From Naegleria gruberi (lineage: Eukaryota): a stretch of 64,000 bases of DNA. Every line of letters starts with the position of its first letter. Positions within the stretch are counted from its first letter, which is position 1. The position numbers were made by a program, and so were the translations under genes. Below the pieces are notes generated by a model that saw nothing but the letters and a program-made list of their open reading frames with translations, made no database searches and was not told the DNA's origin. The stretch is taken from assembly GCA_000004985.1 (NCBI GenBank), contig GG738851.1, one strand, 5' to 3'. Shown here one piece after another: positions 4,765 through 62,000 of the stretch.

Positions 4765-7700
4765 ATGAACAACTCAGAGAGAAGGAGCATTGAAATGATG
4801 AATTATAATCTTGGCCCTCGTACTGGACCAACGATGCCTCCACCCTCTCCCAATTCTGTCAGAGCATTAAGGAGAGGTTCTCTGGATCCATCTCTAGCAG
4901 GACGACTTCCAAAATCTGCCTCAAGAAACAGTATTCAAGACCCAGAAGCATCACTCTTCGATAAGGATGACAATCAATCCTCCTTGTCGAAAAGCACCAA
5001 GTCAAACCCTTCCGATCCAGTAACAAATTCATCAGTAATGCAAAAATTTGAACATGCCATCTTTACTTTTATTTACTCACTAAGGCCCGAAGTTCCAATG
5101 CATGGAGCCTTATCATTTTTCATTCATATTTTGATTATATTTCAATCTCTTAGTATAGGATCACCGATAGATTTAAATTGGGGATTGTATGGTACTTGGA
5201 TTGTTAGTATAATAGCCATTTGTCGGAGTTATGGATTTCAGTTTATGAATTATGAAGCATTTATTGCCTTAGCAATTATTGTCTTCCTCACGCAAATAGC
5301 AGTATGCATTGTCATTTATATGACATTTAAGGCCCAACAAGTCGGAAGTAGATACTGGGATAAGATCAAAACAGCTGCAAGGGTAATGTTTGCAATAATC
5401 TTTTTCATGGCCATACCAACAACCTATGGTTTAATGTTGGGGTTTTGGGAGTGTGACTATTCCGCAACTGTGCCCTTAAATGAAACTCCCACCTATGTTC
5501 TTGTCAACTTTCCAACAGTAGGATGTTGGTCTGGATTGAATGGCGCATTTGCAGTCTTGTCAGTAATCTTTCTCATTATTCAAACTGTCTTGGTTGCCTG
5601 TTCGATAGCAATCTTTATTAACATTAACATCAAGACAAGGGATTTATTTGTGTTAGACAACCCTTACATTATAATAATCATTATGGCATCTAATCAAATT
5701 TATCTAATTGTTTCCCAAGTCATTCCTGCTTCAATAATTTTCGTTAGACCTATTATTTATTTGGCCTTTGCAGTATTGTTTCTTGCCGTGCTATTTTGGA
5801 TGCAACCTTTCATTCGAAGAGGAACTAATGTTGTTTATGGTGGAGTGGGATTTGCAAGATTAGCTATTGGAGGTGTATCAATCGCCACAGCTCTGGTAAA
5901 TCAAACAAATGAATGGGGACTCGGTCTTGGACTAGTTGGTGCTCTTGTGGGAGGAAGTGCTGTTCTTTTTTCTATTGGTTTAGTGGTGACCGACATTTAC
6001 ACAAGGTACATGCAGCATAAAGGAAGAAAAATTCTTCAAGAATGTGTCCAAAAGAGATCATTTAATACCTTGACAGATTCCGACCATTATTTTGTCAATA
6101 TATTTGTCAGATATGCAATGAAAGGAAAAGAAGCTGATATAGACCTTGCAGATTCATTTACCAAGTTAGCCATGTCACAAAGATTAGAAATTAATGCCAC
6201 AAGTATGATAACTTGCGCATTATTCATCAAGTTTATTCTCACTACTAGTTCAGTAACTCTTGCCTTAACATTGGTACAAAAATCTCAAAAGAAAGGTGAT
6301 AACTTTTTTTTGAGATTCATAATCTTTCTCAGAGTGAGAGAAGTCGAAAAGGCTTCATCAATGGGGAGAAACAATTTTCAATTGGATCACATTATGTCGA
6401 GTGTAAAAAAAAAGTTGGAACTTTCAAGGGAGCTACAAGTTCTCTTTTGGAAAAATGTCACCATGGAACAAACAAATGACGAAAAGCTTTATAACATTGT
6501 CAAAGAAATACAAGAATTGAGTGAAGAATGTTCCATTATTTTCAGCAATTTGCTATCAAATTATGCTACTGATGTGGTATGTTGTTATTTTGTGTGATTT
6601 TTATAAGTGTCTTCAGACTGTACTGCGAGCATATGCTGCCTTCCTTGAAGATTTCCTTTTTGATAACATGGCAGCTGCTGAACTTTTGGAGGAGGCTAGT
6701 ATTATAGAAGAGGAAAACTTTAAAAAGGCTTCTCGAAATTTGGCTAGTAAAAGACCTAGTATCACTGGAAGTATTGGTCCTAAGAGGTCAATTTATGAAT
6801 CTGATCTGAAAATTTCCCTTAGTAGAGGAGGATCACAAGAAGATCTGAATGCTATGAATTTTGAATCTGTTAGTAATGAAGATAGAGAAGGTGCACAACA
6901 AAATGTTTTTAGGAGCGCTGTCAATAAGAAGGAGGAGCACCAATTTCTTTATATTTTCATTGCATCTCTTGGATTTGTTGGAATCACCTTTATAATAGTG
7001 GTGTTAGTATTGGGTTTAGTCATTTCTCAAACCAGCAGCAAGAATATTACTCTCGTTGAGAAATCTTGCTCAATATCTTCGTGTAAGTTTGTGTTTTTAT
7101 TGTAAATTCTAATGATATTAGTACCTTATCTTGTGTTGTCCGATATTAGAAGAATTCAGTCAATGATGAGAACATCATCCAACAAAACATATGATTCCTT
7201 CATGACCAACCATAAAGAAAGATTAACTGAAGCACTTGATAAGCTTGAGGTTGTAGAAACATTCCTTAAGGATTCCATTTTCACTGAAACAATGATGGAA
7301 CACTTTGTCAAGCTCAGCTCAAATATTTTAGTACCAATCATGCAAATTAACTATTCCGAGCCCCTTCTGTACTCTTCCAAGAATGCTTCTGTTGCTGATT
7401 TAGTATCAGTATTTCAGTCAACATCTCAAAAGTACTTCGACCATGGAATAGATCATTACAATGTTACCCGTGACAGTTTTGATTTCCTTCTAATTTGTAA
7501 GTTTTACTGAACTATTGTTTATAACAAACTCAAGGGAATAACCGACTTGATTTTACTCAATCGTTTGAGAAATTTTGCTCTAAATTGATAGCAGATTCTG
7601 AGAGTCAAATTTATTCCTTCAGAATTGTCTTCATTGTTGTTATATCTTCATTGGCTTTTGTTTTTGCGTTATATGTAGTTGTGTATATTATTGTAATTGT

Positions 7701-31685: not shown

Positions 31686-32226
31686 TTATTCATTAGATGA
31701 GGAGAACCTATTTAAGGCCTTCTCAAAATGATCTGCGCTGAGGGTTCTATCCTCCAATTGAACTGCACAAATAGTAAACCTTTCCATTGGTTCTTGACTT
31801 TGTAAAGTTTCTTTCACTACGAAAAATTTACCATCATTACTGCTTTCGTCAAGGTAATAGTAGTGATTCTTGAAAATAGACAAGTGAATCATGTCTAGAA
31901 CATGAGGACATTCCTCTGTATCGAATTGTACAAGCTTGTCATAAATCAATTGAGCATTTTCCAAAGTGTCACAGCAAAAGAAAAATGCATCTGTTGCGCA
32001 TTGACTTGGTGCAAAAGTACAAAGCTTTTCCAATAGTTGACTATCATCCTTGGTCAAATATTTAGCCATTTCATTGTAAAGTACATTGAGTAATTCATGT
32101 TCTGCCACTTCAATCATTCTGTGAGTTGAAAATCCAAAATTCAATTTTCCAAAAACAGGATGCCTAACAGTATAGTGAAATTGATGTAACAAGTCGTAGG
32201 TGGTTTCTTTAAGAAGATAATCTCTC
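31686..32226 (-). CDS. 3' terminal part of a gene of unknown function; its 5' part is lost in the N gap
   Basis: The reading frame is open from the gap edge to a stop at 31686. The C-terminal segment reads ...ICAVQLEDRTLSADHFEKALNRFSSSNE. Confidence 0.3.
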
Positions 32227-34712
32227 NNNNNNNNNNNNNNNNNNNNNNNNNNNNNNNNNNNNNNNNNNNNNNNNNNNNNNNNNNNNNNNNNNNNNNNNNN
32301 NNNNNNNNNNNNNNNNNNNNNNNNNNNNNNNNNNNNNNNNNNNNNNNNNNNNNNNNNNNNNNNNNNNNNNNNNNNNNNNNNNNNNNNNNNNNNNNNNNNN
32401 NNNNNNNNNNNNNNNNNNNNNNNNNNNNNNNNNNNNNNNNNNNNNNNNNNNNNNNNNNNNNNNNNNNNNNNNNNNNNNNNNNNNNNNNNNNNNNNNNNNN
32501 NNNNNNNNNNNNNNNNNNNNNNNNNNNNNNNNNNNNNNNNNNNNNNNNNNNNNNNNNNNNNNNNNNNNNNNNNNNNNNNNNNNNNNNNNNNNNNNNNNNN
32601 NNNNNNNNNNNNNNNNNNNNNNNNNNNNNNNNNNNNNNNNNNNNNNNNNNNNNNNNNNNNNNNNNNNNNNNNNNNNNNNNNNNNNNNNNNNNNNNNNNNN
32701 NNNNNNNNNNNNNNNNNNNNNNNNNNNNNNNNNNNNNNNNNNNNNNNNNNNNNNNNNNNNNNNNNNNNNNNNNNNNNNNNNNNNNNNNNNNNNNNNNNNN
32801 NNNNNNNNNNNNNNNNNNNNNNNNNNNNNNNNNNNNNNNNNNNNNNNNNNNNNNNNNNNNNNNNNNNNNNNNNNNNNNNNNNNNNNNNNNNNNNNNNNNN
32901 NNNNNNNNNNNNNNNNNNNNNNNNNNNNNNNNNNNNNNNNNNNNNNNNNNNNNNNNNNNNNNNNNNNNNNNNNNNNNNNNNNNNNNNNNNNNNNNNNNNN
33001 NNNNNNNNNNNNNNNNNNNNNNNNNNNNNNNNNNNNNNNNNNNNNNNNNNNNNNNNNNNNNNNNNNNNNNNNNNNNNNNNNNNNNNNNNNNNNNNNNNNN
33101 NNNNNNNNNNNNNNNNNNNNNNNNNNNNNNNNNNNNNNNNNNNNNNNNNNNNNNNNNNNNNNNNNNNNNNNNNNNNNNNNNNNNNNNNNNNNNNNNNNNN
33201 NNNNNNNNNNNNNNNNNNNNNNNNNNNNNNNNNNNNNNNNNNNNNNNNNNNNNNNNNNNNNNNNNNNNNNNNNNNNNNNNNNNNNNNNNNNNNNNNNNNN
33301 NNNNNNNNNNNNNNNNNNNNNNNNNNNNNNNNNNNNNNNNNNNNNNNNNNNNNNNNNNNNNNNNNNNNNNNNNNNNNNNNNNNNNNNNNNNNNNNNNNNN
33401 NNNNNNNNNNNNNNNNNNNNNNNNNNNNNNNNNNNNNNNNNNNNNNNNNNNNNNNNNNNNNNNNNNNNNNNNNNNNNNNNNNNNNNNNNNNNNNNNNNNN
33501 NNNNNNNNNNNNNNNNNNNNNNNNNNNNNNNNNNNNNNNNNNNNNNNNNNNNNNNNNNNNNNNNNNNNNNNNNNNNNNNNNNNNNNNNNNNNNNNNNNNN
33601 NNNNNNNNNNNNNNNNNNNNNNNNNNNNNNNNNNNNNNNNNNNNNNNNNNNNNNNNNNNNNNNNNNNNNNNNNNNNNNNNNNNNNNNNNNNNNNNNNNNN
33701 NNNNNNNNNNNNNNNNNNNNNNNNNNNNNNNNNNNNNNNNNNNNNNNNNNNNNNNNNNNNNNNNNNNNNNNNNNNNNNNNNNNNNNNNNNNNNNNNNNNN
33801 NNNNNNNNNNNNNNNNNNNNNNNNNNNNNNNNNNNNNNNNNNNNNNNNNNNNNNNNNNNNNNNNNNNNNNNNNNNNNNNNNNNNNNNNNNNNNNNNNNNN
33901 NNNNNNNNNNNNNNNNNNNNNNNNNNNNNNNNNNNNNNNNNNNNNNNNNNNNNNNNNNNNNNNNNNNNNNNNNNNNNNNNNNNNNNNNNNNNNNNNNNNN
34001 NNNNNNNNNNNNNNNNNNNNNNNNNNNNNNNNNNNNNNNNNNNNNNNNNNNNNNNNNNNNNNNNNNNNNNNNNNNNNNNNNNNNNNNNNNNNNNNNNNNN
34101 NNNNNNNNNNNNNNNNNNNNNNNNNNNNNNNNNNNNNNNNNNNNNNNNNNNNNNNNNNNNNNNNNNNNNNNNNNNNNNNNNNNNNNNNNNNNNNNNNNNN
34201 NNNNNNNNNNNNNNNNNNNNNNNNNNNNNNNNNNNNNNNNNNNNNNNNNNNNNNNNNNNNNNNNNNNNNNNNNNNNNNNNNNNNNNNNNNNNNNNNNNNN
34301 NNNNNNNNNNNNNNNNNNNNNNNNNNNNNNNNNNNNNNNNNNNNNNNNNNNNNNNNNNNNNNNNNNNNNNNNNNNNNNNNNNNNNNNNNNNNNNNNNNNN
34401 NNNNNNNNNNNNNNNNNNNNNNNNNNNNNNNNNNNNNNNNNNNNNNNNNNNNNNNNNNNNNNNNNNNNNNNNNNNNNNNNNNNNNNNNNNNNNNNNNNNN
34501 NNNNNNNNNNNNNNNNNNNNNNNNNNNNNNNNNNNNNNNNNNNNNNNNNNNNNNNNNNNNNNNNNNNNNNNNNNNNNNNNNNNNNNNNNNNNNNNNNNNN
34601 NNNNNNNNNNNNNNNNNNNNNNNNNNNNNNNNNNNNNNNNNNNNNNNNNNNNNNNNNNNNNNNNNNNNNNNNNNNNNNNNNNNNNNNNNNNNNNNNNNNN
34701 NNNNNNNNNNNN
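32227..34712. other. Assembly gap (run of N)
   Basis: A continuous run of n from 32227 to 34712. Confidence 0.95.
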
Positions 34713-35549
34713 ATTATTGAGGAAGCTGTCAAGTGCCATACACAATATGATGACACAGAAAATACTACCCTCTACAATTATAATGCTATTTACAGCCATT
34801 GGGAACAGGTTTGTAAAAGACCTTGTAGAACATTTGACAGTGTCTATCTCAACGAGAAAGTCAAGTCTCTTTTCCTTCAAGACTTGGAAAGATTTCTCTC
34901 CAACAAGAAGTTTTATATGGAAAATCAATTGAGCTACAAGAGAGGATATTGTCTTTATGGAAAACCAGGTTCTGGTAAGACATCTTTGGTTCTGGCTACA
35001 GCTGCACACATCAAGTGTCCAGTTTATATTTTGAATCTCAATCAATCAGAAATGAACGATACAGCATTAATAGATGCCTTTTCTTCAATACCCTCTCGAA
35101 GTATCATTACTTTGGAAGATGTAGATTCTGCATTTAATGAAAATAGAAAAGCAACAGGAGAAGTACGTAATGGACTTTCATTTTCAGGACTTCTCAATGC
35201 CTTGGATGGTGTTTGTTCTTATTCTGAAACTCCAAAGCTTGTTTTCATGACTACTAATCACATTGAACGATTAGATGCTGCCCTAATTCGTCCTGGAAGA
35301 GTTGACTATAAGGTAAAATTTGACAATGCCACACCAGATCAAATTCAACAAATCTCTTTCAAGTTTTTCAAAAATCAAGAATTGGCTCAATCTCTCAGTA
35401 AGGAGGTGGATTTACAAAAGCTCACCATTTCTGAAATTCAAACTTTCCTAATGAGATTTATCAATACAGAGACTCATTCAACAATTCTTAAACAAGTGTC
35501 AAGCTATGTTTTGGAAATTGAATCCCTCAAAAAGGAGCAAAATGGTTGA
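34713..35549 (+). CDS. BCS1-like mitochondrial AAA ATPase; the C-terminal part is present and the 5' end is lost in the gap
   Basis: The frame is open from the gap edge. It contains RGYCLYGKPGSGKTS (Walker A), LSFSGLLNALDG and TTNHIERLDAALIRPGRVDYKVKF. These are typical of BCS1. Confidence 0.65.
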   Translation: MIEEAVKCHTQYDDTENTTLYNYNAIYSHWEQVCKRPCRTFDSVYLNEKVKSLFLQDLERFLSNKKFYMENQLSYKRGYCLYGKPGSGKTSLVLATAAHIKCPVYILNLNQSEMNDTALIDAFSSIPSRSIITLEDVDSAFNENRKATGEVRNGLSFSGLLNALDGVCSYSETPKLVFMTTNHIERLDAALIRPGRVDYKVKFDNATPDQIQQISFKFFKNQELAQSLSKEVDLQKLTISEIQTFLMRFINTETHSTILKQVSSYVLEIESLKKEQNG

Positions 35550-45115: not shown

Positions 45116-46306
45116 ATGAAAAAAATAACAAAACTCGCCAATCAATTTAGTGTTCAAGAGAGAATGTACAAAATCCTGCTGGCCCGTGATCTAGTCTATC
45201 ACGAACAAAAACAATATGAACAATTTGAATTTCAAGTCATCAAACAACAAGGTAGGCAAATTAACTATTTCTGAAACTCTTATTAAATATATTTAAAATG
45301 ATTATTTAATGATGATGGTTAATGATGATGAATAGGAACTTTGGAAAATTATGTAAATCAAGTGAATGAATATAAACCTGATGGATTATTATTCATTGGA
45401 TGGGCAACTCCATTCAAATTATCGGAGGATGGATTTTTCAAAAAGCTTACACCAGAAGCCTTGAATAATTTAAAGATTATTTCTAATCATGGAGTTGGAT
45501 ATGATAATGTTGATGTCAAGACAGCTCTCTCTATAAAATCATCACCAATTGTTGTTACTCACACACCTGATGTGGTGAGTGATGCAACAGCTGATGTTGC
45601 TTTCACTTTAATGTTGAATGCATCGAGAAAATCAAGAATATTTGAGGAACGTTTGAGACAAGTCAAGTGGAAATCTGGATTGGAAACTGTTTTGGGAAAT
45701 GATTTGAGAGGAAAGACTTTGGGAATTATTGGAATGGGAAGTATTGGTAAGAAAGTAGCTCAGAGAGCTATTGGATTTGGAATGAAGATTGTTTATTATC
45801 AAAGAAACCAAAATTTAGAATTTGAGAAGAATCTCAATACTGCTGGTCAAGTTATGTTCAATGAATCTTCCACAATTCAATATTGTAAGACTTTGGACGA
45901 ATTATTGGTACAGTCGGATGTGATTTCTGTCAATACTCCACTCACTGAATCAACACGTCACTTGTTGAGTAAGGCACAATTTGATAAGATGAAGCCAAAT
46001 TGTCTTGTAATTAATACGGCTAGAGGAGCAGTTATCAATGAAAAGGATCTCGTTGAAGCATTGAAGAATAAGAAAATTGCTGGATGTGGTTTGGATGTTT
46101 TTGAATTTGAACCAAAGATTACTGAAGAGTTACTGGAATTGGCTAAGGAAAATCCAAACATTTCACTTCTTCCACACATTGGAACTCAAACTGTAGAAAC
46201 CCGTGTAGATATGGAACGTTTGTGTCTTGTTAATTTGGAAAATTATCTTACTTTGAAGAAGAATCCACTCACTCCAGTTCCAGAACACAAACATTTATTT
46301 CAATAA
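45116..46306 (+). CDS. D-isomer-specific 2-hydroxyacid dehydrogenase (glyoxylate/hydroxypyruvate reductase-like); exons 45116-45251 and 45336-46306
   Basis: GIIGMGSIGKKVAQRA is the NAD-binding Rossmann motif. VNTARGAVINEKDLVEAL and HIGTQTVETR follow the family pattern. An upstream 45-aa exon reads MKKITKLANQFSV.... It is joined by the donor g|gtaggc and the acceptor gaatag|. Confidence 0.6.
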
Positions 46307-46328
46307 CTTCTAATTAAAATGGAAATAT

Positions 46329-47292
46329 TTATTGTTGTACATCAACATTAACCATAGCTTGATCAGAAACTCCATTTTCCTGATATTGTTGTTGTTCAAC
46401 AATATAATTTTCACTCTTGACATCTTGTGTGATTGGTTGTTGTGGATAAACAACTTGTTCTTGACCTTGTGGATAATACTGAGCTGTTGTTGTTTGTGGT
46501 TGTTGCATTGGATAACCTTCTTGTTGTTGTTGCTGTGGAGGATAATATTGTTCTTGTTGTTGTGGAGGATAATATTGTGTTGTTGGTTGTGGTTGACCAT
46601 AACCTTGTTGTGGATATTGTTGTTGAATAATAACAGTAGTAGAACCTTCATTCTTTGGTTTGTAAGGTCCCAATATCTTTGCAACTCTAATTCTTTCAGT
46701 AAATAAATAATAATTAATCGATGTGAAAGCTCCGATAATTCCAATAGCGAATTGAATGACGAATGGAATGACAGTGACACCTGGATGAACGAATGCAAGC
46801 ACAGAGGATATGACAAATCCGTTGAATGAGGTACTTGTATTGAGGATGAGTGGAGTATGAGCCAATTCTTCATTGTAATAATTATGTAATATATTTAAAT
46901 ATATTAAGAATGCAACTATTCAGTAATTACTTACCAGTAACCCACAATAACAAGTAAATAAACGTAAAATATTGCATACCAAGCACATATGCCATCGTAT
47001 TCAATTTTACCATTCGAGAAGCAATGACAGGTGTCAATCTTGACTCTGGCATAAATAATGCCACTAATCCCATTGCTGCCATTGCCAGGAAAAAGAAACA
47101 AACAAGAACAAGAATCAGATCAGCAGTAGCATATCCTGGTATTGAGTTTCTGTAATAAGAAATCATCATTGCCATGTGGTAAATGAGCTGAAGTACGAGC
47201 CAGACAATGTGAACAATTTGGAGGACGGCATGACCAACTTTCCATGAGGAAGTTGTGGCTGTTGTGGCTGGATTATTGTTGGTATCCATCAT
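46329..47292 (-). CDS. Tetraspan membrane protein with a Q/P/Y-rich C-terminal tail; exons 47292-46935 and 46867-46329
   Basis: The start is MMDTNNNPATT. There are four hydrophobic helices. The donor g|gtaagt follows ...LLWVTG and the acceptor is atgaag|. The tail has YYPPQQQ repeats. The total is 897 nt. Confidence 0.45.
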
Positions 47293-47735
47293 TTTGAAGA
47301 GTTGGTTTCTATTTGTTTTTTTACAATTTGAGTTTTTTCTTGTTTTTCGAATATATTGTGGGAAACTGAAGAGTTTGTTGTTGATGAACCAAGTGTCAGC
47401 GAAAAACATGAAAGCTTGTTGATAATGACGCCACCTACGGATAATTGAGTGGTGCTTGTTTTTGTGTAACTTCCTATTTTAGGACTTGTATTTTGTAAAC
47501 TTGACAACTTTTCATTCGTCCAACTTGTTAAAATGTGAATTCGTGACTGATTGGGAATATAACAAGTGTAAAATGTACAGTACATACCAAATGCAACAAT
47601 TGTTTACACGCCACATAGGCAACAAGAAGAAATGTTTCAACATGTTTCCCACAACAAATCTCATTGCATTCGAAACCAACAATCAGACAAAAAAAAACCC
47701 ACCAACATCAACACTTTCGCCTTTATCAAACCAAG

Positions 47736-48414
47736 ATGGATTCCACAACTCAACAACTTCCAGAACAATCTCCTCTCTCACTCCCAGACGTTACCACCAA
47801 GAAGAAAATCTTCCACCTCGTCAATAATATTCTTCTCTTGGCATTCTGTGTTATTCTATTCCTTTATCACATCATTGCTGGTTTAATTTGGTTTATCAGT
47901 GGAATGCTTGGATATGGAATGTCAGATCTCTTTATGTTTTTCTTGAATTTCTTTACTTTATCCATTGGAATTACTGGAGTAGTTTCTCTGGCACGTGAAA
48001 ATATGAATATTGCGTATAGATATACCTTGTTGAGATTTAATGTTGGTTCTGCCATGATTGGTTTGCCATTCTTGAGTGTTTGCTATTTGTTTATTTCCTT
48101 AACTGGTAAGTTTTTTATTGTAAAATTGTTGAAATTTGGTTAATTTGTTAAATTGTAAAGAGTATGCTCATTCTGTTAATAATAATTATGTTTTTGGTAT
48201 CTATAATTCTCCTGGATTAAACTATGCTCACTGTACAATTGCCTTAATTTGGTCAATTGTCTCATGTGCATTGGCAATTAGTAGCTCCATAAGTGGATTT
48301 ATGTATTATCAATATTTTGATGAATTTAGATTGGAAAAATCAAAGCAAGAATTAATTCAATCTTGTCAACAAAAATCACTTACCACTAGCACTTCAGTCA
48401 TTGTTCAACAATAA
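47736..48414 (+). CDS. Tetraspan membrane protein, a paralogue of the divergently transcribed neighbour; exons 47736-48105 and 48161-48414
   Basis: The start is MDSTTQQLPEQ. The donor g|gtaagt follows ...FISLTG and the acceptor is gtaaag|. Like its neighbour, it has two helices on each side of the intron. Confidence 0.4.
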
Positions 48415-48732: not shown

Positions 48733-48821
48733 CACAAGAAACACCAACAAATAAAAAACTCTACAAGAAACACCAACAAATAAAAACTCTACAAGAAACA
48801 CCAACAAATAAAAAACAACCA
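48733..48821. repeat. Tandem direct repeat of about 30 bp in 3 copies, immediately upstream of the P450 start codon
   Basis: The units are caagaaacaccaacaaataaaaaactcta, then caagaaacaccaacaaataaaaactcta, then caagaaacaccaacaaataaaaaacaacc. Confidence 0.7.
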
Positions 48822-48840: not shown

Positions 48841-50743
48841 ATGATGAGGAAGAAGCTATTGTCCAACAGTTCTGCTTTGAAACAAGTTATTTCATCAGCA
48901 AATGTGCCACATGCTCTCACGATGAGAAGTTTTCATGTTAATTTGAATAATTCAGATGGAGCCAACACCACAGCAGCAGCAACAACATCCACCTCCAGTA
49001 CTACTACTGCCATTCCATCGGCATGTCCTTATCATCAAAAGCAACAAGCAAGTGATGTTCCTCCTCCAAAACCATTCTCTGAAATTCCTGGACCAAAGGG
49101 ATGGCCACTTATTGGAAATTTACCACTTTTATATAAGAATAGTAAGAATAATATTGGACCATTCTTTATGGATCTACTGGACACGTATGGTCAAACTGTA
49201 AAATTAGATATTTTGGGAAAGAAGATTATTCTACTTTCCAATCCAGATGATATGGAGAAACTTTACAAAAATGAAGAAAAGAGAACTCAATCAGAAGGTT
49301 CTAGATTCTACAAAATGGAAAAGGGTGTCAGATTAGCCCCAATGGAAATGAGATATGAAGAAAATTGGAATGACATTCGTCAGATTTACAATATTGCAAT
49401 GAAACCAGATTTTCATGAAACTGTTACACTTCCACATTTGAGTGAATTGAATTCAGAGTTTGTTAAGAGATTGATGAGATATTTGGAACCTGGTGAAGGT
49501 GATAAGTATAGATTGACAAATGCTGTTGATGCTATTTCTAAATATGGATTTGATGCTGTCATGAAGGTTTTCTTGGTAAGTTGACTTGTGATTAGCTCTG
49601 TATTTTAATGATATAATAAGGGAGTCAAAATGACTGATGAGTTGACAGCAACTTTCCCATTCAAAATTAGAGACTTCGTGGATCAATCTGTCAAATCACT
49701 TGACATTATTGGTAAATTAATGCAAAATCCACCAATTTACAAATATTACAAAACTCCACTTTACAAGCAATTGGAAGAAAGTTATGACAAGTCATTCGAA
49801 TATGCCAGATATGTCATGAATAGATTTAAGAGTAATCCAAGTGATAAGCCAAGATTTTATGAATTCTTAATGGAACGTTCTAAGGATGATCCAAATCCTG
49901 ATGCAATTGTTGAATCAGTCATGATTAGTTTCTTACAAGCTGGTAAGTTTTCGAATATTTTACATGAAAGTGAACTAATCATGTTGTAAAATTATCGATT
50001 ATCATATTCAATTATTACAATAATAGGTATTGACATTACAATGAGAATATTATGTATCACTGCATTCCGTCTCGCTCACCATCCAGAATATCAAGAAAAG
50101 ATCTATAAAGAATTATTAGATACATTCGGAGAACCAACTTTGGAAGAAGCCATCTCAGAAAATGGACTTCAAGTCACAAAAGAGCAATACAAGAAACTCA
50201 AGTTTACAAAACAATTTTTGGATGAAGTTTTAAGATTGAATCCATTCAGTTATATTGTCAGTGCTAGAGAAATGAGTAAAGATTTGGAAATTGGAGGATA
50301 CATCATGCCAAAGGATTCACTTGTCATGACCGTACAACAACATCCAAGTTTGAAGGATGAATATATTCCTAGAGCTCTTGAATTTATTCCTGAAAGATGG
50401 GAGAAGGGATCTCCTTATGCTCCAACAAATAGTTTCATTTCAGCTCCGTAAGTTTTTTTTTCACCTTTCTAATTTATTCTTAATTCTCAATTGAATTCCA
50501 ATAATAATTAGATTTGGAGTTGGAGCTCGTAAATGTCCTGGATCACGTATTGCTACTACTGAAATTCATTTTGCAATCATTAACTTTGTTAGACATTTCA
50601 AATTGTCACATGCTAATCCAGAAAAATTCCCAGACATGAGTTTCGATCAAGCGCTTCTCTACATTAATCTTGATAAGAATGCTCTCTATTTTACTCCTAG
50701 AGATCACTTGAAGGATCATTGCAAATCAGTTCAAAGAAAATAA
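48841..50743 (+). CDS. Cytochrome P450 (mitochondrial-clan-like); exons 48841-49575, 49621-49942, 50027-50447 and 50512-50743
   Basis: PGPKGWPLIGNL is the N-terminal hinge. AGIDITMRI is the I-helix. PERW is present. FGVGARKCPGSRIA is the heme-binding Cys motif, and it is split by an intron. The N-terminal 35 aa are Arg/Ser-rich and look like a presequence. Three gtaagt donors are present and frames verify. Confidence 0.7.
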
Positions 50744-57576: not shown

Positions 57577-58630
57577 TAAATTGTATGGCCTCAGATACCC
57601 CATTCTAATATTGATTCAATTTGATACACACCTTATTGATACAACACTTGATTGATATTTAGAATTAATCATGTTGAATATGTTTAATTAATAAATTTTC
57701 AACTTTTCCAAAAATCAACTTCAACAATTAATGTACGATTATACGAATGATATTATAATCATTTCCAATTTCATATATATGATATAAAATGATGAAATAT
57801 ACCTTTTAGATTTGTTGAAAATATAATATATGATATCCTTAGTATTCTGTACTCATACTTCCTAAGGTGTTGACCAAGATGTTGACCTAAAATATGGAAA
57901 TACTCTAAAATTCAATCATACTGATAAATACAGTAGTTAATATGAATATTTATGATAAATCACTGAAGCAACCATGATTGGATCCCTTTTTGAAACTTTT
58001 GGAAGTCAACTTGGATGAAAGTAGGGAACGTTTGCTATGGTTAACACTTTTAAAGGGATATGAATATTTTATTGGATACTATCTGTTTTTACTGTACTTT
58101 ATCAATAAATATTGAATATCATGATGTTACAATCTATATTTCCAATTTGGGAAATGTTGCAGTTTTAATGTTTAATTGAAATATTGCCATCACGCCAATA
58201 ATATCATAAAAATGATATTATATACTTTAATTGAGATGTATATGAATATAGAATTGAAAGATTTGATTTTAGACATTTATTAATGGCATGGGTAGTTCAC
58301 TATGGTAGTAACTTATATGATAACTGTCTAAGATAATGTTCAAGTCATTCCTAAATTGATATTATAAGAATATATAATGATTAAAACATTATAATAATTA
58401 ATTGGAATTGATTATTAAACTGTATTGACGTATAAGAATGTTACCTTTGATGAATTGGGTCAGTAACTTGACAGATAAACCAGTTATATTGATGTTGATT
58501 TAAATTACCTCAGAAACGTTACAAATATCATTTATAAGAGTAGTGGTATGATATTTTATATTGTTGTATATCTTGATTTTGACTTGTAACGTGGTCATGA
58601 GTAATTGCTGACAGGGTTGTATACTGATTG

Positions 58631-58800
58631 TGTCCAATTGATATGAAATTGATAGAAACCTATTTATATGATGTTTATAAACATATGGTATCAGTTTGGT
58701 AAAGAATCTCATTGTCCTTAGGGTATTTTCCTATTGAGGTACCTTAATTGACCATCTCTATATTTAAATTGAGGTATGATGTTTATTTCAATTGTCATGT
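58631..58800. repeat. Subtelomere-associated repeat, copy A
   Basis: It is about 85% identical by eye to 63200-63367. Both share tgtccaa.tgat.tgaaattgatagaaacct...ctcattgtccttagggta...cctattgaggtaccttaattgac.atctc.atatttaa. Confidence 0.6.
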
Positions 58801-59096
58801 AAATGATGGATAAGTAGCCAAGGTGCGCATATGACACTGAATGGTGTAGAATCGGTATAACATTATTTTCAACATTTGCAAGTGCCATTTCTCATCATCC
58901 CACAAAAATTGTTTTTACATTAATTGCTAATGATTTTTATTAATTTTTATTAAGTCAATTTTATTAATAATTAATGAAAAGTCGTTAATAAAAACGTTAA
59001 ACCTTGTTCGTGAAGAAAATCGACTTTTAATGCGTTATTTTAACGTCATTAATTAATATTAATTATTAATGCTAATTCGCCAATAAACTGAGTGTT

Positions 59097-62000
59097 NNNN
59101 NNNNNNNNNNNNNNNNNNNNNNNNNNNNNNNNNNNNNNNNNNNNNNNNNNNNNNNNNNNNNNNNNNNNNNNNNNNNNNNNNNNNNNNNNNNNNNNNNNNN
59201 NNNNNNNNNNNNNNNNNNNNNNNNNNNNNNNNNNNNNNNNNNNNNNNNNNNNNNNNNNNNNNNNNNNNNNNNNNNNNNNNNNNNNNNNNNNNNNNNNNNN
59301 NNNNNNNNNNNNNNNNNNNNNNNNNNNNNNNNNNNNNNNNNNNNNNNNNNNNNNNNNNNNNNNNNNNNNNNNNNNNNNNNNNNNNNNNNNNNNNNNNNNN
59401 NNNNNNNNNNNNNNNNNNNNNNNNNNNNNNNNNNNNNNNNNNNNNNNNNNNNNNNNNNNNNNNNNNNNNNNNNNNNNNNNNNNNNNNNNNNNNNNNNNNN
59501 NNNNNNNNNNNNNNNNNNNNNNNNNNNNNNNNNNNNNNNNNNNNNNNNNNNNNNNNNNNNNNNNNNNNNNNNNNNNNNNNNNNNNNNNNNNNNNNNNNNN
59601 NNNNNNNNNNNNNNNNNNNNNNNNNNNNNNNNNNNNNNNNNNNNNNNNNNNNNNNNNNNNNNNNNNNNNNNNNNNNNNNNNNNNNNNNNNNNNNNNNNNN
59701 NNNNNNNNNNNNNNNNNNNNNNNNNNNNNNNNNNNNNNNNNNNNNNNNNNNNNNNNNNNNNNNNNNNNNNNNNNNNNNNNNNNNNNNNNNNNNNNNNNNN
59801 NNNNNNNNNNNNNNNNNNNNNNNNNNNNNNNNNNNNNNNNNNNNNNNNNNNNNNNNNNNNNNNNNNNNNNNNNNNNNNNNNNNNNNNNNNNNNNNNNNNN
59901 NNNNNNNNNNNNNNNNNNNNNNNNNNNNNNNNNNNNNNNNNNNNNNNNNNNNNNNNNNNNNNNNNNNNNNNNNNNNNNNNNNNNNNNNNNNNNNNNNNNN
60001 NNNNNNNNNNNNNNNNNNNNNNNNNNNNNNNNNNNNNNNNNNNNNNNNNNNNNNNNNNNNNNNNNNNNNNNNNNNNNNNNNNNNNNNNNNNNNNNNNNNN
60101 NNNNNNNNNNNNNNNNNNNNNNNNNNNNNNNNNNNNNNNNNNNNNNNNNNNNNNNNNNNNNNNNNNNNNNNNNNNNNNNNNNNNNNNNNNNNNNNNNNNN
60201 NNNNNNNNNNNNNNNNNNNNNNNNNNNNNNNNNNNNNNNNNNNNNNNNNNNNNNNNNNNNNNNNNNNNNNNNNNNNNNNNNNNNNNNNNNNNNNNNNNNN
60301 NNNNNNNNNNNNNNNNNNNNNNNNNNNNNNNNNNNNNNNNNNNNNNNNNNNNNNNNNNNNNNNNNNNNNNNNNNNNNNNNNNNNNNNNNNNNNNNNNNNN
60401 NNNNNNNNNNNNNNNNNNNNNNNNNNNNNNNNNNNNNNNNNNNNNNNNNNNNNNNNNNNNNNNNNNNNNNNNNNNNNNNNNNNNNNNNNNNNNNNNNNNN
60501 NNNNNNNNNNNNNNNNNNNNNNNNNNNNNNNNNNNNNNNNNNNNNNNNNNNNNNNNNNNNNNNNNNNNNNNNNNNNNNNNNNNNNNNNNNNNNNNNNNNN
60601 NNNNNNNNNNNNNNNNNNNNNNNNNNNNNNNNNNNNNNNNNNNNNNNNNNNNNNNNNNNNNNNNNNNNNNNNNNNNNNNNNNNNNNNNNNNNNNNNNNNN
60701 NNNNNNNNNNNNNNNNNNNNNNNNNNNNNNNNNNNNNNNNNNNNNNNNNNNNNNNNNNNNNNNNNNNNNNNNNNNNNNNNNNNNNNNNNNNNNNNNNNNN
60801 NNNNNNNNNNNNNNNNNNNNNNNNNNNNNNNNNNNNNNNNNNNNNNNNNNNNNNNNNNNNNNNNNNNNNNNNNNNNNNNNNNNNNNNNNNNNNNNNNNNN
60901 NNNNNNNNNNNNNNNNNNNNNNNNNNNNNNNNNNNNNNNNNNNNNNNNNNNNNNNNNNNNNNNNNNNNNNNNNNNNNNNNNNNNNNNNNNNNNNNNNNNN
61001 NNNNNNNNNNNNNNNNNNNNNNNNNNNNNNNNNNNNNNNNNNNNNNNNNNNNNNNNNNNNNNNNNNNNNNNNNNNNNNNNNNNNNNNNNNNNNNNNNNNN
61101 NNNNNNNNNNNNNNNNNNNNNNNNNNNNNNNNNNNNNNNNNNNNNNNNNNNNNNNNNNNNNNNNNNNNNNNNNNNNNNNNNNNNNNNNNNNNNNNNNNNN
61201 NNNNNNNNNNNNNNNNNNNNNNNNNNNNNNNNNNNNNNNNNNNNNNNNNNNNNNNNNNNNNNNNNNNNNNNNNNNNNNNNNNNNNNNNNNNNNNNNNNNN
61301 NNNNNNNNNNNNNNNNNNNNNNNNNNNNNNNNNNNNNNNNNNNNNNNNNNNNNNNNNNNNNNNNNNNNNNNNNNNNNNNNNNNNNNNNNNNNNNNNNNNN
61401 NNNNNNNNNNNNNNNNNNNNNNNNNNNNNNNNNNNNNNNNNNNNNNNNNNNNNNNNNNNNNNNNNNNNNNNNNNNNNNNNNNNNNNNNNNNNNNNNNNNN
61501 NNNNNNNNNNNNNNNNNNNNNNNNNNNNNNNNNNNNNNNNNNNNNNNNNNNNNNNNNNNNNNNNNNNNNNNNNNNNNNNNNNNNNNNNNNNNNNNNNNNN
61601 NNNNNNNNNNNNNNNNNNNNNNNNNNNNNNNNNNNNNNNNNNNNNNNNNNNNNNNNNNNNNNNNNNNNNNNNNNNNNNNNNNNNNNNNNNNNNNNNNNNN
61701 NNNNNNNNNNNNNNNNNNNNNNNNNNNNNNNNNNNNNNNNNNNNNNNNNNNNNNNNNNNNNNNNNNNNNNNNNNNNNNNNNNNNNNNNNNNNNNNNNNNN
61801 NNNNNNNNNNNNNNNNNNNNNNNNNNNNNNNNNNNNNNNNNNNNNNNNNNNNNNNNNNNNNNNNNNNNNNNNNNNNNNNNNNNNNNNNNNNNNNNNNNNN
61901 NNNNNNNNNNNNNNNNNNNNNNNNNNNNNNNNNNNNNNNNNNNNNNNNNNNNNNNNNNNNNNNNNNNNNNNNNNNNNNNNNNNNNNNNNNNNNNNNNNNN

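Follow-up and report, generated by a model that had tools for sequence, protein, structure and literature searches.

Two divergent genes in a 64,000-nucleotide stretch of Naegleria gruberi DNA (contig GG738851.1 of assembly GCA_000004985.1; hereafter, the window) are intact and protein-coding, and the best reading of the pair, here termed A and B, is an ancient local inverted duplication. We consider it very probable that the gene structures given below are correct and that the two genes are old paralogues, within a heterolobosean family of four-helix membrane proteins, that arose by inverted tandem duplication. In the duplicated gene, a phase-1 intron would already have interrupted the Glu codon where the third transmembrane helix (TM3) ends; the duplication would have taken place before the Naegleria species diverged, and N. 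gruberi would have retained both copies head to head, 443 bp apart.

Gene A (NAEGRDRAFT_63758, in a corrected model) occupies positions 46329-47292 on the minus strand and consists of two exons encoding, once spliced, a 298-aa four-helix membrane protein with a Q/P/Y-rich C-terminal tail. Its exon 1 (47292-46935, 358 nt) encodes the N-terminus and TM1-TM3, and the last base of this exon is base 1 of the Glu120 codon. It is followed by a phase-1 intron (46934-46868, 67 nt, GTAAGT...AAG) and by exon 2 (46867-46329), whose frame is fully open through loop 3, TM4, and the tail as far as the stop codon at 46329-46331. Gene B (NAEGRDRAFT_63759), at 47736-48414 on the plus strand, also comprises two exons, which specify a four-helix membrane protein of 207 aa: exon 1 (47736-48105, 370 nt) ends on base 1 of the Glu124 codon, the intron (48106-48160, 55 nt, GTAAGT...AAG) is again in phase 1, and exon 2 (48161-48414) includes the stop codon. 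The pair and its neighborhood have a G+C content of about 35% and short GTAAGT...AG introns. The original prediction, made from the DNA letters alone, gave the same coordinates, strands, and exon structures, which open reading frames and spliced translations bear out; it put the start codons of the diverging genes about 440 bp apart, and the measured distance is 443 bp. The annotated N. gruberi protein XP_002681145 (P0003) is gene B (100% identity over 100% of the length, 207 aa), and because it matches the spliced product, splicing of the gene B intron is required. Exon 1 of gene A matches the annotated protein XP_002681272 (P0001, NAEGRDRAFT_63758).

On the evidence of their sequences, A and B are true paralogues belonging to one small membrane-protein family. 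BLASTP aligns them over 196 aa with 26% identity and 51% positives (E 1e-15), and the alignment covers all four helices. The Smith-Waterman score of 160 compares with 36 +/- 6 for globally shuffled sequences (z 20) and with 41 +/- 8 when residues are shuffled within 15-residue windows, which keeps the hydropathy profile (z 15). The original prediction had called for a pairwise alignment of just this kind, reasoning that the duplication would be in doubt if nothing were shared beyond a TG|E motif at the intron; given the BLASTP E-value and the two z values, the similarity extends far beyond that motif.

A metagenome contig (L001; ENA ERZ929261, 2108 nt) that is 97% identical to window positions 46180-48269 allowed the pair to be compared between strains; it carries both genes in an unchanged arrangement. 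The spacer between the two divergent start codons (47293-47735, 443 bp), which presumably holds both promoters, differs from this contig by 9 substitutions and 5 indels. Some of these indels break the frame, so the upstream extensions of the open reading frames are non-coding and the start codons are fixed. The distance between the start codons is within the <1 kb by which bidirectional promoter pairs are recognized, a limit that concerns transcription start sites. A divergent pair with so short a spacer might be a co-regulated unit, with the spacer serving as a bidirectional or mirror-symmetric promoter and the two proteins forming a hetero-oligomer, and one feature of the spacer would fit such an arrangement. 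The 11-mer GTTTCCCACAA occurs exactly twice in the 64-kb window, at 47356-47366 on the minus strand and at 47644-47654 on the plus strand, so placed that either start codon has one copy 64-92 nt before it, reading in the direction of its own gene and preceded by a CAACAAG-N5-ATGTTT block. However, when the spacer is shuffled with its dinucleotides preserved, about 10% of the shuffled versions contain an 11-nt inverted match (P about 0.1), which makes the mirrored pair not significant; GTTTCCCACAA does not recur upstream of the family's genes in N. lovaniensis, N. fowleri, Willaertia, or the environmental sequences; and divergent gene pairs are common in compact genomes. We therefore regard co-regulation from a shared promoter as rather unlikely. 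Head-to-head paralogue pairs produced by inverted tandem duplication in compact eukaryotes show the same opposite orientation, short common upstream region, and conserved intron position and phase as A and B. The present pair differs from typical ones in that its duplication is ancient (26% identity) and in that the only mirrored motif of its spacer is not significant; after a duplication of this age, sequence similarity within the spacer is not to be expected. A different string, CATCACGTCAAA, precedes the A-type gene in both N. lovaniensis and N. fowleri, lying about 20-30 nt (L002) and about 55-65 nt (L003) before the ATG at 6001; it may be a conserved cis-element, and it does not occur in the N. 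gruberi spacer.

The family to which both genes belong was defined by a profile search in which P0003 and exon 1 of gene A served as the query for an exhaustive HMMER run against 1.84 billion cluster representatives. The search returned 16 matches at E ≤ 1e-3 (E-values from 3e-41 to 6e-4), 14 of which are credible; the other two, a leafhopper repeat protein and a 4941-aa protein, look spurious. Three of the credible members (P0003, P0001, and P0004) are the window's own genes and the strain-contig copy. N. gruberi has two further members, NAEGRDRAFT_71576 (P0005), which is B-like (47-49% identity) and lies on another scaffold, and NAEGRDRAFT_79015 (P0017). The remainder comprises one gene each from N. 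lovaniensis and N. fowleri, three representatives from Willaertia magna (one of which shares a 90% cluster with a fourth gene, P0019), and four environmental sequences. All named credible matches come from Naegleria or Willaertia, and in this search the family is restricted to Heterolobosea, namely to these two genera and some environmental relatives. Its members share a W-K-x-x-H motif ahead of TM1, (Y)-H-(F) within this helix, W-(F/Y) following it, and G-Y-x-x-x-D where TM2 begins; in the clade that includes A and B, T/V-E-(F/Y/L) is additionally found where TM3 ends. The histidine in TM1 (H45) is nearly invariant in the family alignment, and the other motifs are present in A and B; thus, both proteins match the profile together with its motifs and have four transmembrane helices with both termini predicted to be cytosolic.

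Other searches placed the family in no known group. Pfam scans of A and B alone and of all 14 members gave no family HMM match, only scattered sub-threshold noise; the one candidate considered, Far-17a/AIG1 (E 9e-4 in two members), was rejected because none of the ten full-length members gave it when scanned one by one. The family profile found nothing below E 0.6 among PDB sequences. Word-indexed homologue searches with A and B recovered only the genes themselves and the strain contig, a homologue search with the 14-sequence profile added nothing new and was dominated by low-complexity candidates, and a literature search by locus tag found no paper on either gene. Two of the gene models from related species are irregular. 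The N. lovaniensis model XP_044551536 contains a false "intron" that bridges a 1-nt frameshift and removes most of TM1 (L002, 6100-6167), and the frameshift reflects either an assembly error or a damaged gene. In N. fowleri, the A-type gene (XP_044566487, 125 aa) is shortened by a frameshift in TM3, and its frame changes once more in TM4 when compared with N. lovaniensis; the frameshifted sequence (L003, 6001-6700) recurs in an independent Logan contig (L004), and in this pathogen the gene is probably a pseudogene.

A neighbor-joining tree built from 180 alignment columns groups gene A with the N. lovaniensis gene (bootstrap 97%) and gene B with NAEGRDRAFT_71576 (bootstrap 100%). The Willaertia genes and NAEGRDRAFT_79015 together form the opposite half, and bootstrap support for the node that unites the A and B groups is only 33%. 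Because A is nearer to the N. lovaniensis gene and B is nearer to NAEGRDRAFT_71576, the split between A and B predates the divergence of N. gruberi and N. lovaniensis and is ancient rather than recent. An origin so old raises the alternative that adjacency is secondary, that is, that a dispersed duplication was followed by a later encounter of A and B, through rearrangement or by chance. No second clear family member was found within 5-10 kb at the six other family loci examined, and for the A-type gene in both N. lovaniensis and N. fowleri there is neither an intact or clear B-type neighbor nor any flanking gene in common with the window, so the head-to-head layout is documented only in N. 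gruberi strains. Against this alternative stands the arithmetic of adjacency: N. gruberi has approximately 15,700 genes, and with at least four family members among them, the chance that two would be neighbors is about 1e-3, which makes a local origin likely. A second, fainter argument comes from N. fowleri, where a 31-aa open reading frame on the minus strand (L003, 4693-4788; it contains KFFHLLNNIVLLTSC before its stop and is also recorded as ending in REGLKFFHLLNNIVLLTSC) resembles residues 24-38 of B, at the start of TM1 (tblastn E 0.08, weak). It lies head to head with the A-type gene, 1.2 kb upstream of it on the opposite strand, within a 1.8-kb stretch without an annotated gene, and may, weakly, be the relic of a B-type partner. 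On balance, we consider secondary adjacency improbable. The original prediction of an inverted local duplication is thus upheld as to paralogy and the shared intron, and a local origin is likely, but with the qualification that the split is older than the divergence of the Naegleria species (bootstraps of 97% and 100%).

The reference model of gene A (P0001, XP_002681272) has 120 aa and ends in ...WVTGK followed by a stop. This ending is exon 1 read into the intron; hence, the annotated model is truncated at an unrecognized intron. The splice proposed here is inferred from homology and from the strain comparison. Exon 2 carries on the homology to B through loop 3 and TM4, as seen both by BLASTP and by tblastn to exon 2 of B. 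Compared with L001, exon 1 of gene A differs by 7 substitutions but by no indel (by codon, 4 changes are synonymous and 2 non-synonymous), and exon 2 differs by 4 synonymous changes and 1 non-synonymous change as well as by an in-frame indel of 3 nt, which lies in the tail and is the only exonic indel of the comparison; the intron between them has a 1-nt indel that would shift the frame if it were coding. In gene B, all 3 substitutions in exon 1 are synonymous (3/3), and the intron differs by one substitution and by a 12-nt insertion in L001. Counted by codon, the changes amount to 8 synonymous and 3 non-synonymous in A and to 4 and 0 in B, and the total of 12 against 3 indicates purifying selection on both genes. 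The alternative that gene A is what the reference annotation XP_002681272 says it is, a 120-aa three-helix protein without an intron, with the downstream open reading frame non-functional or belonging to a separate gene, is very unlikely. It conflicts with the homology that exon 2 shows, over loop 3 and TM4, to both B and the N. lovaniensis protein, with the pattern of strain changes just described, and with the presence of a canonical donor and acceptor at the position of B's annotated intron.

The two introns are in the same phase and at the same place. Exon 1 lengths of 358 and 370 nt both leave a remainder of 1 when divided by 3, so both introns are in phase 1, and they split homologous Glu codons that are aligned with each other by BLASTP (Glu120, G|AA, in A; Glu124, G|AG, in B). 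The original prediction had described them as falling right after an (L/V)TG motif. Shared position and phase hold up, but the "G" of that motif is not a residue of either protein: it comes from reading through the donor (ACT-GGT), and the true spliced junctions are ...WVT-E-LAHTP in A and ...ISLT-E-YAHSV in B. The A-type gene of N. lovaniensis has an intron at the same position and in the same phase (WVT|EFAF, G|AA; L002, 6369-6460), which means that the intron predates the A/B duplication, or at least the split within the A lineage. This intron is missing from the Willaertia members P0013 and P0014 and from the environmental P0008 and P0009, each of which is one uninterrupted open reading frame; consequently, both intron gain and intron loss are compatible with the data. 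Two independent insertions at one site, rather than inheritance from the pre-duplication gene, might be suggested by these intronless members and by the unequal intron lengths (67 and 55 nt) but are scarcely credible, as A, B, and the N. lovaniensis gene, which represent two subfamilies and two species, share codon, phase, and split base (G|) and all belong to a single clade, CTG|A at the exon junction is no strong proto-splice site, and parsimony favors either one gain or an ancestral intron that was lost elsewhere.

Hydropathy analysis finds four hydrophobic segments in each protein, as the original prediction had it, and an AlphaFold2 model of B, computed from a 14-sequence alignment (pLDDT 84.5, pTM 0.75), consists of four long helices at residues 19-54, 58-86, 92-131, and 141-198. 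Lys and Arg residues, summed over the family, number 29 at the N-terminus, 8 in loop 1, 30 in loop 2, 6 in loop 3, and 27 at the C-terminus, and NxS/T sequons across the family are concentrated in loop 3. From these two distributions, we infer that both termini are cytosolic and that loops 1 and 3 face outward or the lumen. Judging from the model, the fold of A and B would resemble MS4A, tetraspanin, and MARVEL-type bundles only generically. MS4A/CD20-like proteins (Fc-epsilon-RI beta and CD20; PF04103) are a metazoan family; none of the 14 members matches their HMM at E ≤ 1-5, identity is 10-13%, and the Foldseek E-value of 0.06 is not significant. For MARVEL proteins (PF01284; synaptophysin, synaptogyrin, and MAL), there is likewise no Pfam match in the A/B family, the fold score is below that of a designed soluble helix bundle, and the likeness of the tail is only compositional. 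Unlike tetraspanins (PF00335), A and B lack the large second extracellular loop (EC2), the CCG motif, and the conserved cysteine pattern, and there is no HMM match; loop 3 measures 7-36 aa across the family, and in A and B it has 22-26 aa and no cysteine. Claudin/PMP22 proteins (PF00822) have a large first loop with a W-GLW-C-C signature, whereas loop 1 here has 11 aa, again with no HMM match.

By analogy with such proteins, A and B could tentatively be viewed as non-enzymatic membrane organizers or adaptors of an MS4A-, tetraspanin-, or MARVEL-like kind, with the cytosolic tail of A, and the comparable tails of other family members, acting as a low-complexity protein-interaction module. A more elaborate proposal, to which we give little credence, is that the family would be the heterolobosean counterpart, as a distant homologue or by convergence, of the MS4A/MARVEL organizers of vesicles and the plasma membrane; in that case, A and B would be co-expressed from mirror-image promoters and form hetero-oligomers, and the Tyr/Pro/Gln-rich tail would recruit trafficking partners in the way that synaptophysin or ALG-2-binding tails do.

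The tail of gene A (46332-46625, minus strand; residues 201-298) is a low-complexity, Q/P/Y-rich sequence (34 Q, 12 Y, and 12 P). A 27-nt tandem repeat within it (46521-46592, 2.7 copies), which encodes QYYPPQQQ(E/Q), has added to its length. Protein B stops where this tail starts: its ...STSVIVQQ, followed by the stop codon, is aligned with ...STTVIIQQQ of A. According to the original prediction, one copy had gained a YYPPQQQ tail. The tail is real, but P/Q/Y-rich extensions recur in the family, at the C-terminus of P0008 and P0009 and at the N-terminus of P0014 and NAEGRDRAFT_79015 (P0017), and NAEGRDRAFT_71576 (P0005) has a short P/Q/Y-rich stretch, PTPQQQPSYPSS. Thus, such a tail is a recurrent or ancestral feature of the family rather than a one-off gain.

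The main value of these results lies in annotation and evolutionary bookkeeping: the gene pair is real but ordinary and opens no long-standing question. The outputs are a corrected model of NAEGRDRAFT_63758 and the definition of a small, previously unnamed, lineage-restricted membrane-protein family of Naegleria and Willaertia, together with the flagging of an N. lovaniensis model distorted by a frameshift and of an N. fowleri gene that has probably decayed. The pair also offers, in a protist with few introns, a clean case in which an intron has held its place across an ancient duplication. Surface or vesicle proteins peculiar to the Naegleria lineage could be relevant to the cell biology of the pathogen N. 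fowleri, but the sole N. fowleri member seen looks like a pseudogene.

Several features of the surrounding DNA may be recorded here. The stop codon of gene A (46329-46331) lies 22 nt from that of a convergent plus-strand gene whose open reading frame ends at 46306 and which encodes a D-2-hydroxyacid dehydrogenase (Pfam 2-Hacid_dh_C, E 4e-54); at this distance, the 3' untranslated regions of the two genes must overlap or be extremely short. No other segment diverges from L001 as much as the 22-nt stretch between them (46307-46328), which differs by 3 substitutions and 1 indel. In the composition profile of the window, G+C drops to near zero at about 32000-35000 and about 58500-62000, most likely because these stretches are runs of N that mark assembly gaps. 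On the other side of the pair, a cytochrome P450-like gene starts with the ATG at 48841, and immediately before this start is a 28-nt tandem repeat, ACAAGAAACACCAACAAATAAAAAACTCT (48734-48816; 2.9 copies, 96% matches).
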